This document shows positions 29,616 to 35,133 of a stretch of 50,676 bases of DNA, piece by piece (position 1 is the stretch's first letter; every line of letters starts with the position of its first letter). The stretch comes from Candidatus Moraniibacteriota bacterium (GTDB lineage: Bacteria; Patescibacteriota; Minisyncoccia; CAIUEV01; JAHKAQ01), in assembly GCA_014729725.1 (NCBI GenBank), contig WJJL01000008.1, forward strand, positions 1 to 50,676, in the 5' to 3' direction. Made by a program: the position numbers and the translations under genes. The notes under the pieces were generated by a model, which saw nothing but the letters and a program-made list of their open reading frames with translations, ran no database searches and was not told the DNA's origin.

Positions 29616-29689
29616 TGGGCGACTCAGGACTTGAACCTGAGACCTCGTCATTATCAGTGACGCGCTCTAACCAGCTGAGCTAGTCGCCC
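29616..29689 (-). tRNA. tRNA-Ile(GAT)
   Basis: Minus strand GGGCGAC TAGCTCAGCTGGTTAGAGC G CGTCA-CTGATAA-TGACG AGGTC TCAGG-TTCAAGT-CCTGA GTCGCCC A. Confidence 0.96.
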
Positions 29690-30176
29690 GTTCCATATAT
29701 TTTTTAATGCAATTATGCATTTTTTTCATTTTTAAGCTGTCTTTTTTATTATAATGATTAAATCCGGATAAATGAAGCAACCCATGGATTAAAGCACTAA
29801 TAATCGCCGATCCAAGCTTCCTTTTTGTCTTATTTGATTTTTGTTTAATATATTCGACACTTAAATATATTTCGCCGACACTCGGGGTGTTTTGTTCAAT
29901 GATGTTTTTTAAAGGATCTTCCTGTTTTTCATAATTAAAACTCAAAACATCGGTAGCTTTGTTGATTTTTCTATACTTACTATTTAGCTTTTTAATCTTA
30001 TTATTGTCAATAAAAACAATATTTATTTGTTGGGGGCATTTGGGGTTTTTCAGGCATTTAATCAAGGCTTTCTTTAATAAATTTGCATCCAGCTTTTTTT
30101 TAAACTTACTTAAAAAACCGTTTTCAACTTCAAAAAAAATTTTTATTTTTATTGTATTTTTTTGTTTAATCTTCAC
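29667..30176 (-). CDS. ybeY: rRNA maturation factor/endoribonuclease YbeY
   Basis: LNSKYR..NKATDVLSF, GEIYLS, IHGLLHLSGFNH (H-x3-H-x5-H); GTG start overlaps the yqeY stop; 3' end overlaps tRNA-Ile. Confidence 0.88.
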   Translation of the reverse strand: MKIKQKNTIKIKIFFEVENGFLSKFKKKLDANLLKKALIKCLKNPKCPQQINIVFIDNNKIKKLNSKYRKINKATDVLSFNYEKQEDPLKNIIEQNTPSVGEIYLSVEYIKQKSNKTKRKLGSAIISALIHGLLHLSGFNHYNKKDSLKMKKMHNCIKKYMERATSSAG

Positions 30177-30619
30177 TCAAGATTTTTTAATACCAGATCC
30201 TTTATTCTTTCTCCCGAAGCAATTCCTTGAGTTTCTTTAATCGCAACAGGCATTACTTTACCTATATCCTTTTTTTCTTTGGCTTTAGTTTCTTTAATTG
30301 CCTGTTTTACTATTTTTTCTAACTTTTCATCGCTTAATTCTTCCGGCAAAAATTCTTTAATGATTTTAGCCTCCTGCTCTTCCTTTTCTTTCAAATCGTC
30401 CCTGCCAGCGTTCTGATATTGTTTTATGGAATCCTGACGCCTTTTTAATTGATTTTTTAAAATCGAAACAACCTCCCGGTCATTTAAAGGCTCTTTTTTT
30501 TCGATTTCTTTTTCCTTTATAGCGCTTTTTATCATTCTTAAAGTACTTAAAACAACTTGATCTTTATTTTTCATAGCTGCTACAAATTTTTGATCAATTT
30601 TTTTTATAAGATTTTTCAT
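30173..30619 (-). CDS. yqeY: GatB/YqeY domain protein
   Basis: AMKNKD...LSTLRMIKSAIK..EIE, K.RQDSI.QY.NAGRDDL..KE..E, FLPEELS, DIGKVM. Confidence 0.9.
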   Translation of the reverse strand: MKNLIKKIDQKFVAAMKNKDQVVLSTLRMIKSAIKEKEIEKKEPLNDREVVSILKNQLKRRQDSIKQYQNAGRDDLKEKEEQEAKIIKEFLPEELSDEKLEKIVKQAIKETKAKEKKDIGKVMPVAIKETQGIASGERIKDLVLKNLE

Positions 30620-30633
30620 TATTTTTCATTATT

Positions 30634-30891
30634 CTATTGTTTGCCGATTTTTCCGCTTCTAAAGCGGTTTTTTTCATCTTCAAGTCTGCCTAATTTAATC
30701 AGTCTTTCCTTTTTCTTTAAAAGCTTAATTCTATGCAACGCCCTTTGCTTTCTTGTTCTTTTATTCATTGTCTTTTTATGATATCGGCGGTCGCGACTTC
30801 TTTTTCCTACCCCGCTTTGCTGCCAGCGTCGGCTGAATCTTCTTAAAAGATTTTCTACGGGTTCATTGCCTTTATTTTTAACTTCAACCAT
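30634..30891 (-). CDS. rpsU: 30S ribosomal protein bS21 with extended basic C-terminus
   Basis: V.VK....EPVENLLRRFSR..QQSGV......RRYH.K pattern; rpsU-yqeY synteny. Confidence 0.82.
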   Translation of the reverse strand: MVEVKNKGNEPVENLLRRFSRRWQQSGVGKRSRDRRYHKKTMNKRTRKQRALHRIKLLKKKERLIKLGRLEDEKNRFRSGKIGKQ

Positions 30892-30898
30892 TTATAGA

Positions 30899-30906
30899 CA
30901 CCTCCT
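30899..30906 (-). promoter_or_regulatory. Strong Shine-Dalgarno sequence of rpsU
   Basis: AGGAGGTG followed by a 7-nt spacer (TCTATAA) and ATG. Confidence 0.85.
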
Positions 30907-31122
30907 ATTCTTATTTTAAAAATTATTAAATTAAAATCAAAAATAAGGAATTTATATATCTAAAAAATTTTGCTTGGAAAATTTTCAGATAATCAATTCC
31001 CCTAATTTTTAGATTTTACAATCTTGTTGACTGTCACCAATACTAACACAAGAAATCCTAAAAAACAAGAAGCCTCCTTTTCTTTTGAACCAAAACGATT
31101 TAGGGGTGTTTTTTAATTTTTT

Positions 31123-34251: not shown

Positions 34252-34692
34252 ATGAAGCCTGTAATTAACAGAAAAGTTAGATTCCATTATGAAATATTGG
34301 AAACCCTGGAAGCGGGGATTGTTTTGACTGGAGCTGAAGTAAAATCCGTAAAAAAAGGACAAGTCGATATTTCCAATGCTTATGTTACAATTAAAAACGA
34401 TGAGATTTTTTTAATAAACGCCAGCATCCCCAGGTATAAATTCGCACCTGCTGACGAAAGTTATGATCCCACGAGGTCTAGAAAACTTTTATTAAAAAAA
34501 TCTCAAATTCAGTCGCTAAAAGGTTATTTGACTCAAAAAGGATTGACTTTAACCGCAATAAAGGTATATACTAAACGAAACAAGGTAAAAGTGGAGATTG
34601 CCTTGGTTAAGGGAAAAAAGAAGTTTGACAAACGGGAAGATATCAGAAGAAGACAACATGAAAAAGAAATGAGGAATATAAAGTCTTTTTAA
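34252..34692 (+). CDS. smpB: SsrA-binding protein
   Basis: NRKVRFHYEILETLEAGIVLTGAEVKS, R.RKLLL, KGKKKFDKRE. Confidence 0.96.
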   Translation: MKPVINRKVRFHYEILETLEAGIVLTGAEVKSVKKGQVDISNAYVTIKNDEIFLINASIPRYKFAPADESYDPTRSRKLLLKKSQIQSLKGYLTQKGLTLTAIKVYTKRNKVKVEIALVKGKKKFDKREDIRRRQHEKEMRNIKSF

Positions 34693-34707
34693 TCTCACAA
34701 AATTTAT

Positions 34708-35099
34708 GGGAGTGACGGGCTTCGAGGATAGATAAGGTAAGTATTGCAAGCCAAGTTTTAAAGATCTTGTAAAAACTTTAAAAATTATAGTCGCAAAACT
34801 ATTTAATAAGGCTAAGGTTGCAATAGCTAACGCTTTTGCTCCAATGAGCCTTCAAACCGCTACTGCCTAATACGCAGCAGCCATCGATTCAATTGATGCC
34901 TAATAGATTGAAATCGGTGTCGTTTATTAGGCGAATCCTTTAAGAGCGTTTCCCTTTTTTAGGAGGATTTTGCAAGGAAACAGAAAAATTCATTTTTTTG
35001 CTCAACTTAAGTGAATTTTTCCAAAAATCGGTTGAGCTAAGCTTGTAGAAAATATTTTGCCAAATTTATCCCACGCCGGTTCAACTCCGGCCACTTCCA
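34708..35099 (+). ncRNA. ssrA: tmRNA (one-piece)
   Basis: GGGAGTG/CACTTCC-A acceptor stem with G3.U pair, GCCGG-TTCAACT-CCGGC T arm, internal tag ORF 34793-34870, directly after smpB. Confidence 0.92.
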
Positions 35100-35133
35100 C
35101 CTAAGAAGTATTATATTATAAAAAAAGTTAAGA

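Follow-up and report, generated by a model that had tools for sequence, protein, structure and literature searches.

In Bacteroidia, the tail of the 16S rRNA is held by the ribosomal proteins bS21, bS18 and bS6, and the lineage carries a residue signature that comprises Tyr54 and a less basic C-terminal part in bS21, Phe50, Asn56, Gln58 and a Lys or Arg at position 37 in bS18, and a C-terminal helix in bS6 (PMC7797042; this and the other papers are cited here from excerpts of their text). Flavobacteriales typically possess one gene bearing a strong Shine-Dalgarno (SD) sequence, rpsU, the gene for bS21, at about -20 kcal/mol, and in other orders of Bacteroidia, as in Chlorobia, a strong SD is found on rpsU and/or rpsR (PMC9976891). 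The Bacteroidia rpsU SD spans 9-13 bp; in Flavobacterium johnsoniae, an rpsU start region without an SD rescues ablation of the anti-SD sequence of the 16S tail, with suppressors mapping to the rpsU SD (PMC13000453), and the C-terminal helix of bS21 stands in the way of the 13-bp SD-anti-SD helix (PMC13000457). bS21 is also described as contacting the SD-anti-SD helix, with initiation disturbed in its absence (PMC9723584, citing Van Duin and Wijnands 1981). The present analysis concerns rpsU in a 50,676-nucleotide stretch of DNA from a Candidatus Moraniibacteriota bacterium (contig WJJL01000008.1; the whole stretch is referred to as the window), a member of the Patescibacteria or Candidate Phyla Radiation (CPR). 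To our knowledge, the bS21/anti-SD circuit, by which bS21 governs its own synthesis, has so far been documented only in Bacteroidota, where it is the clearest example of a 'specialised ribosome' in bacteria.

The rpsU SD of this Moranbacteria-like organism is real, exceptional within its genome, conserved in relatives, and lost together with the anti-SD. The site itself is very probably a functional, selected SD whose pairing with the anti-SD is used, as judged from sequence comparison, and it is plausible that the same logic as in Bacteroidia arose independently in CPR, as the initial annotation of the window had proposed. Keyword searches (SD with CPR, Patescibacteria or Parcubacteria; rpsU autoregulation) found no literature description of rpsU SDs in CPR. 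The terms 'Patescibacteria' and 'candidate phyla' are absent from PMC7797042, PMC9976891 and PMC13000453, as are 'Patescibacteria' and 'phyla' from PMC13000457. The additions made here are the organism's own 16S tail, a link between the presence of the anti-SD and the SDs of rpsU and of the gene for the HU protein, two HU paralogs that differ in start style, and rpsR as a negative control.

An exceptional Shine-Dalgarno sequence before rpsU

rpsU lies on the minus strand of the window (30634..30891) and encodes a bS21 of 85 residues with a long basic C-terminal part (Pfam PF01165). The minus strand around its start reads AATAGGAGGTGTCTATAAATG. The SD core AGGAGGTG (30899..30906, minus strand, read from 30906 to 30899) is followed by an A/T-rich spacer of 7 nt, TCTATAA (30892..30898, minus strand), and by the ATG at 30891, and its eight contiguous bases are complementary to the 16S tail (…AUCACCUCCUUUCU). 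Direct reading thus reproduces the perfect SD, 7 nt from the ATG, that had been pointed out from the sequence. The identity of the open reading frame (ORF) stands as well: its residues 4-54 score 32.2 bits with Pfam Ribosomal_S21, for which the cut-off is 27, and the best-matching PDB chains are gamma-proteobacterial-type bS21 (best E = 7.8e-6).

The window's own genome (G000) is represented by an assembly of 1.14 Mb in 69 contigs, with 33.5% G+C and 94.7% completeness; no public sequencing run, RNA included, was listed as containing this DNA. The nearest rpsU-bearing public records are metagenome-assembled genomes (MAGs) of Candidatus Moraniibacteriota, at 80% and 76% identity, in agreement with the CPR origin that had been suspected. 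In the same genome, uS5 is followed directly by uL15 across a 43-nt gap, with no uL30 between them (G000:C56 10192-11425, minus strand), an arrangement that fits a CPR origin. The whole-genome Rfam search gave no 16S match; a 3' fragment was located by motif search at the end of contig C56 and then assigned by cmscan with Rfam to positions 942-1533 of the small-subunit rRNA model (G000:C56 38535-39099, cut by the contig end). Its tail is GGATCACCTCCTTTCT; the anti-SD of this genome is therefore canonical, and the 16S retains CCUCC.

Pairing with this tail was computed for all start regions. The gene set consisted of 929 genes from an ORF picker based on a codon score, with rpsU, which falls under the caller's score cut-off, added by hand. 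The gene caller is crude, and individual starts may be wrong because each was set at the first ATG; choosing starts so as to maximise the SD produced hundreds of false matches inside coding sequence, which were excluded from the counts. Two probes were used, the 10-nt CACCUCCUUU (922 genes) and the full 15-nt 16S tail (914 genes). With the shorter probe, thresholds of -3.5, -4.5 and -10 kcal/mol are reached by 6.1%, 4.0% and 1.2% of genes, respectively, so that strong SDs are not common elsewhere in the genome, and rpsU stands at -14.0 kcal/mol, eighth among 922. With the full tail it reaches -17.7 kcal/mol and ranks ninth of 914.

Comparison with shuffled and mock regions separates weak from strong pairing (15-nt tail, n=914). 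At -4 kcal/mol or below, the 78 real start regions are close to the 76 given by composition shuffles, against 266 in mock regions at -62..-43 and 385 in mock regions at +40..+59. At -16 kcal/mol or below, nine genes are observed against 0.2 from composition shuffles, and the mocks give 0 and 2. The energies are bimodal, with a gap between -13.5 and -17.7 kcal/mol and rpsU at -17.7. This comparison indicates that the genome is truly SD-poor and that the rpsU site lies far beyond chance. As in Bacteroidia, an SD-poor genome thus keeps CCUCC in its 16S, and weak SD-like sequences are under-represented in its start regions. From -20 to -1, G accounts for no more than 3-7% of bases. A is most frequent (0.59) at -11/-10, following T-rich -13/-12, and stands at 0.5-0.56 at -7 to -3 (818 ATG starts, -30..+9), a profile that could represent a start signal made of upstream adenines, or a -10 box close to the start, with very short leaders.

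The ribosomal-protein genes provide the most direct comparison set. No strong SD precedes uS10, uL4, uL23, uL2, uS19, uL22, uS3, uL16, uS17, uL14, uL24, uL5, uS14, uS8, uL6, uS5 or uL15 of the S10-spc cluster on contig C56, nor the nearby bL27, nor uS2 or bL20 in the window, nor bS6 or bS18, and uL18 of the same cluster has only a weak one (-6.7 kcal/mol). As the other 23 lack a strong SD, rpsU is the only SD-led gene among 24 named ribosomal-protein genes, again as in Bacteroidia, where the rpsU SD is likewise exceptional. EF-Tu also has no strong SD (-5.8 kcal/mol). Within the window, none of the 42 called genes reaches -7 kcal/mol (rpsU lies outside the 42), which bears out the SD-less neighbourhood described initially; the gene names used there for galU, manC, groES, lepA, prfB, rpsB, tsf, gyrB, hsp20, dxr, ftsZ, ftsA, smpB, infC, rplT, mreB, greA and amt agree with NCBIfam. 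The claim that rpsU alone carries a strong SD holds for the window but not for the genome, in which it is ninth in strength and belongs to about 12 SD-led genes.

The rpsU SD and the anti-SD in relatives

Among 40 relatives, a readable 16S 3' end was available in 20. The tail GATCACCTCCTT is kept in 12 of these, and CCUCC is missing in the other eight, in line with the presence of the anti-SD motif in 48% of Parcubacteria given in the excerpt of Tsurumaki et al. 2022 (PMC9297842), which also describes bS21 as frequently absent from Parcubacteria and larger in CPR. Pfam located rpsU in 15 of the 20 genomes: an SD of -9.3 to -15.7 kcal/mol precedes it in 10/10 anti-SD-positive genomes, and none is found in 5/5 anti-SD-negative ones (+0.6 to -6.0). 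With a profile made from proteins of the clade itself, bS21 was then recovered in four of five genomes rechecked (G015, G039, G016 and G033), all missed by Pfam PF01165; the anti-SD-positive G015 and G039 have rpsU SDs of -12.3 and -10.7 kcal/mol, and the anti-SD-negative G016 and G033 have none. In total, the rpsU SD is present in 12/12 relatives with CCUCC (-9.3 to -15.7 kcal/mol) and in 0/7 without it (+1.5 to -6.0), the latter count covering seven of the eight because G025, with a weak Pfam bS21 match and no locus, was left out.

The conservation that had been predicted for the rpsU SD is therefore found in every anti-SD-positive relative, and the CPR relatives without an anti-SD have an SD-less rpsU, as in the F. 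johnsoniae ablation rescue. HU follows the same division, being SD-led in 7/10 anti-SD-positive relatives and in 0/5 anti-SD-negative ones. The excerpt of PMC9297842 is silent on gene-specific SDs, whereas anti-SD loss here coincides with loss of both the rpsU and the HU SD. Unlike that account, in which bS21 is often absent, the clade profile found the protein in most of the Pfam-negative genomes rechecked, and because Pfam missed it there, published 'bS21 absent' calls in Parcubacteria may be overestimates. An apparent class of genomes with an anti-SD and an SD-led HU but no bS21 was dismissed on the same grounds, as G015 and G039 each proved to have bS21 with an SD. Unlike in some Bacteroidia orders, rpsR is SD-led in none of 30 CPR genomes (G000 and 29 relatives): it has no SD at its first ATG (+1.6 to -4.4 kcal/mol), and reaches -10.0 at an alternative start in one genome.

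Displacement of the anti-SD by an intron was ruled out as the source of the missing motif, since no CACCTCCTT occurs within about 0.5-1.5 kb downstream, the full extent of the sequence available, at the eight anti-SD-negative loci; the sole match, in L027 at +1152, is unrelated. Separately, the 16S genes of G006, G003 and G020 (L015, L017 and L018) have a last third about 900 nt longer than in other relatives, with 1344-1377 nt between two conserved anchors against about 430 nt in the others. This points to an insertion or intron, the window's own family included.

A wider search with a 14-row alignment gave 62 rpsU loci, spread over Moranii-, Andersen-, Kerfeld-, Doudna- and Giovannonibacteria as well as unnamed CPR MAGs; 13 of the loci appear, by identical upstream strings, to come from the same genomes as G001-G013. 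rpsU reaches -9 kcal/mol or below in 44/62 of these loci, and neighbouring genes reach -7 or below in 58/825. The whole class is SD-poor: in 18-40 kb samples from 12 relatives, 0-15% of genes reach -7, a share at or below that of the coding-region mock in 8/12 samples.

The initial annotation had also called for covariation of the rpsU SD with the 16S tail. Presence and absence do track each other; no variant tails with compensating SDs were found in the CPR relatives, and the comparison with Bacteroidia accordingly rests on presence and absence. The variant-looking SDs AAAGAGGTGAT and GAAATGAGGTGA were rejected as compensatory covariation because, among ten genomes chosen for such SDs, the 16S was recovered in six and its tail is canonical in 6/6. 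Among ten further genomes chosen for an SD-less or weak-SD rpsU, the 16S was recovered in two, of which a Giovannonibacteria genome lacks the anti-SD, as predicted, and an Andersenbacteria genome keeps it. Two Giovannonibacteria loci (L183 and L185) carry AGGAGG about 14 nt before the rpsU ATG, which is taken as a relic or another element because their readable-16S relatives G031 and G052 lack the anti-SD. At L126, whose upstream string is the same as in G002 and L050, CACCTT lies just upstream of the rpsU SD CACCTTAAAAGGAGGTG; this anti-SD-like sequence, which is not found in G000, could pair with AAGGTG of that SD.

The rpsU locus and other SD-led genes

Upstream of the SD lies a promoter-like TTGATT-16 nt-TAAAAT (30913..30940, minus strand, 9/12 consensus match) which, if used, would give a 5' untranslated region of about 16-20 nt with the SD near its 5' end. 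The indication is weak, because this A/T-rich DNA has many matches of the kind (15, where 8.1 are expected). The rpsU start region is unstructured (minimum free energy -4.3 kcal/mol, z = 0.42, SD unpaired) and the locus has no Rfam match, which rules out a known RNA leader or a structure that hides the SD. Downstream, 14 nt separate the rpsU stop codon from a yqeY-like gene (30173..30619, minus strand; Pfam YqeY E = 1.3e-43) that probably belongs to the rpsU operon. It is followed by ybeY (29667..30176, minus strand; Pfam YbeY E = 5.3e-29), which overlaps the end of yqeY by 4 nt, and the rpsU-yqeY-ybeY string is closed by a tRNA gene (29616..29689, minus strand; Rfam RF00005, 70.1 bits). YbeY is an endoribonuclease that acts in 16S 3'-end maturation. 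Elsewhere in the window, the tmRNA gene comes immediately after smpB (34252-35102, plus strand; Rfam RF00023, 125.8 bits).

The other SD-led genes of G000 encode a varied set of products: an Fe/Mn superoxide dismutase (SOD; G000:C65 1119-1724, plus strand), on a 13-kb contig with a second SD-led gene; a rhodanese-domain protein, with the 13-nt AGAAAGGAGGTGA; an unknown 145-residue protein with a GTG start and a 13-nt SD; a DUF5320 protein of 73 residues; a DUF6789-like protein; an unknown protein of 257 residues; a DUF5684 protein; HU; an unknown protein of 74 residues; an 81-residue DnaJ-type zinc-finger protein; a T4SS-pilin-like protein; and possibly rnpA. Several of these genes carry GGGGGTGA, which pairs via one G-U. 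None of the 13 family and order relatives yielded SOD, which is therefore an accessory gene rather than a conserved SD-led one. HU is conserved as an SD-led gene in most anti-SD-positive relatives, and its two paralogs in G000 (G000:C52 5532-5813, plus strand, and G000:C63 3980-4249, minus strand) have opposite start styles, one being SD-led by AAAGGGGGTG (-19.3 kcal/mol) and the other SD-less (+1.3). Two HU hits also occur in all seven family relatives except G001.

Proposed feedback through bS21 and competing explanations

In this bacterium, nearly all translation starts without SD pairing, from A/U-rich, G-poor start regions, and about 1% of genes very probably use extended pairing of 8-13 bp, namely rpsU, one of two HU paralogs, and small or accessory genes. 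By analogy with Bacteroidia, the likeliest role of the rpsU SD would be homeostatic feedback. bS21 sits on the 30S platform, adjoining the 16S tail; because in Flavobacterium a long SD-anti-SD helix collides with its C-terminal helix, rpsU mRNA would be initiated more efficiently by a 30S subunit that lacks bS21, and bS21-free subunits would thus make more bS21 until all subunits were filled. In CPR, this circuit would rest on a different bS21, of 85 residues with a long basic C-terminal helix and an extra helix, and would dispense with the Bacteroidia pocket residues; the bS21-free state would also read the other extended-SD messages. A role specific to bS21 is favoured because the rpsU SD is unique among the ribosomal genes examined, because it is constant across CPR classes, and because rpsU is again the outlier in Bacteroidia and Chlorobia. 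Feedback of this kind is plausible by analogy, although we place it slightly short of probable.

The proteins themselves resemble the Bacteroidia forms only in part. The AlphaFold2 (AF2) model of the G000 bS21 (mean pLDDT 76) has helices at 12-26, 35-38, 44-67 and 70-79; its N-terminus, MVEV…, is conserved in relatives. SD-positive CPR bS21 proteins have 12-15 additional C-terminal residues that most SD-negative ones lack, and in the model this extra tail forms the helix 70-79 following the long helix 44-67. All bS21 C-terminal parts computed are basic (pI 9.5-11.8). The bS21 and bS18 of a Lutibacter MAG (Flavobacteriales), in which GAAAGGAGGTGA (-21.3 kcal/mol) precedes rpsU and bS21 has 65 residues with Tyr54, served as the ruler. 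A one-residue shift of the alignment, bringing together NKR and an invariant Ala, places the Lutibacter Tyr54 on His53 of the G000 protein, and position 53 holds Tyr in 11/22 and His in 4/22 SD-positive proteins against Arg in 8/11 SD-negative ones. This Tyr-at-53 trend is suggestive, with an ambiguous alignment and confounding by relatedness. Short contigs with a CPR-type rpsU (L157 and L159; 84 residues, preceded by AGAAAGGAGG) also occur in MAGs labelled Lutibacter sp. and uncultured Bdellovibrionales, and the contig in the Lutibacter MAG is probably mis-binned because that MAG also has its own typical 65-residue bS21.

Several observations weigh against a circuit of the Bacteroidia kind. 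The rpsU SD is 8 bp long in G000 and 8-11 bp in its family, unlike the 9-13 bp of Bacteroidia, and eight genes besides rpsU lie at -16 kcal/mol or below, with about 12 SD-led altogether. SDs equal to or longer than that of rpsU, up to 13 nt, precede about a dozen other genes, whereas Flavobacteriales typically have one SD-led gene. The extended SD of HU in 7/10 anti-SD-positive relatives is a further point on this side; because HU and about a dozen G000 genes are SD-led, the 16S tail is usable for genes unlinked to bS21, and a strong start for a few genes fits these other SD-led genes equally well. The long basic tail announced by the initial annotation is present, with 18 Lys or Arg among the last 43 residues and a pI of 11.8, but the Bacteroidia form is short and less basic. 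In an ungapped MAFFT alignment, the Lutibacter Tyr54 stands opposite Arg54, which follows His53, so that neither Tyr54 nor a short, less basic C-terminal part is found in the G000 bS21. The bS18 signature (Phe50, Asn56, Gln58, K/R37) is likewise retained at one of four positions: aligned by hand on the DYKD motif, the G000 protein has Leu25, Thr31, Gln33 and Asp12 for F51, N57, Q59 and K38 of Lutibacter. An Andersenbacteria genome keeps the anti-SD and has only a weak AGAGGA (-5.9 kcal/mol) before rpsU, the one exception to the joint pattern. Finally, a 430-column 16S tree needs four changes in the anti-SD, of which well-supported branches force only one, so that the joint loss may rest on few events.

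These points bear differently on the explanations that compete with bS21-dependent feedback. Plain SD-dependent initiation, in which the 16S tail is always free and a few genes keep an SD for efficient or robust translation, for example with short leaders, is a serious possibility, which we rate somewhat below feedback. It stays alive because the other extended-SD genes, HU above all, use the tail for unrelated messages: a superoxide dismutase, a rhodanese, a pilin and small unknown proteins have SDs equal to or longer than that of rpsU, the HU SD is maintained in relatives, most of the Bacteroidia pocket residues are missing, the promoter-like site would give a leader of about 16-20 nt, and joint loss with the anti-SD is expected here too. 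Yet it gives no reason why rpsU alone among 24 ribosomal-protein genes should be SD-led, the other 23 including the operon-first uS10, uS2 and bS6, and it leaves unexplained both why rpsU is the most constant SD-led gene (12/12, against 7/10 for HU and 0/30 for rpsR) and why the same gene is the outlier in Bacteroidia and Chlorobia (in the excerpt of PMC9976891). The all-or-none pattern, with extended SDs only and no excess of moderate ones, would also be odd for a freely available tail. A chance match or functionless relic is highly improbable: exact matches of at least 8 nt to the tail complement number 208 genome-wide on both strands, mostly inside coding sequence, but 0.2 genes are expected at such strength in the right place, the SD stands at the same spot in 12/12 anti-SD-positive relatives and 44/62 wider loci, and its losses coincide exactly with those of the anti-SD.

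That the tail is buried in a bS21/bS18/bS6 pocket exactly as in F. johnsoniae, with rpsU read only by bS21-free ribosomes, is unlikely. In its favour, the genome behaves alike, being SD-poor with a retained anti-SD and an SD-led rpsU; residue 53 of bS21, one off Tyr54, is Tyr in many relatives and Arg in most anti-SD-negative lineages; and bS6 has a C-terminal extension. Against this stand the single signature residue of four in bS18 (signature from the excerpt of PMC7797042) and the C-terminal part of bS21, twice the length and strongly basic. The match of the G000 protein to the F. johnsoniae bS21 chain 7jil_z has only E = 0.2, compared with 1e-5 for gamma-proteobacterial chains. The extension of the 234-residue bS6 (G000:C34 2287-2991, plus strand) is moreover a K/E-rich low-complexity tail of about 130 residues, not a short helix, and is not comparable by sequence, and the dozen other SD-led genes differ from the single one typical of Flavobacteriales. 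Still less probable is a positive coupling, in which the long basic bS21 tail would stabilise SD-anti-SD helices and SD-led messages, rpsU included, would need bS21-containing subunits. In E. coli, SD-led initiation reportedly requires bS21, contact of the protein with the SD-anti-SD helix and disturbed initiation in its absence are described (PMC9723584), the G000 bS21 is closest to the gamma-proteobacterial protein, and anti-SD-lost lineages tend to a shorter-tailed bS21 (71-83 residues against 75-90), but positive feedback on an essential ribosomal protein would be an unstable design, it would not explain why rpsU in particular keeps its SD, and the Bacteroidia precedent points the opposite way.

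Feedback through bS21 may be part of a broader arrangement, which we consider possible but doubtful as a whole: a CPR ribosome with two states, one bS21-bound with the tail unavailable, the other bS21-free with the tail exposed and acting as the main reader of an extended-SD regulon. This regulon would be small and partly conserved, comprising rpsU, one HU paralog, a pilin, and small stress-type and accessory proteins, and the whole would be a specialised-ribosome circuit convergent with that of Bacteroidia but built on a different bS21. The anti-SD would then be kept in these lineages only for the extended-SD regulon, and its loss, repeated or single, in about half of Parcubacteria would have required SD-less rpsU and hup starts and a trimmed bS21 tail.

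For work on CPR genomes, these results mean that gene callers and surveys of bS21 presence and absence need clade-specific models, Pfam having missed bS21 in 4/5 rechecked genomes. The anti-SD-lost lineages, which have also lost the rpsU and HU SDs, form a natural experiment that mirrors the 2026 laboratory ablation in F. johnsoniae. The same signature in unrelated CPR, in the absence of the pocket residues, would point to a general coupling of bS21 to the 16S tail, and not to the quirk of one lineage. If true, this would explain why SD-less lineages retain an anti-SD at all.

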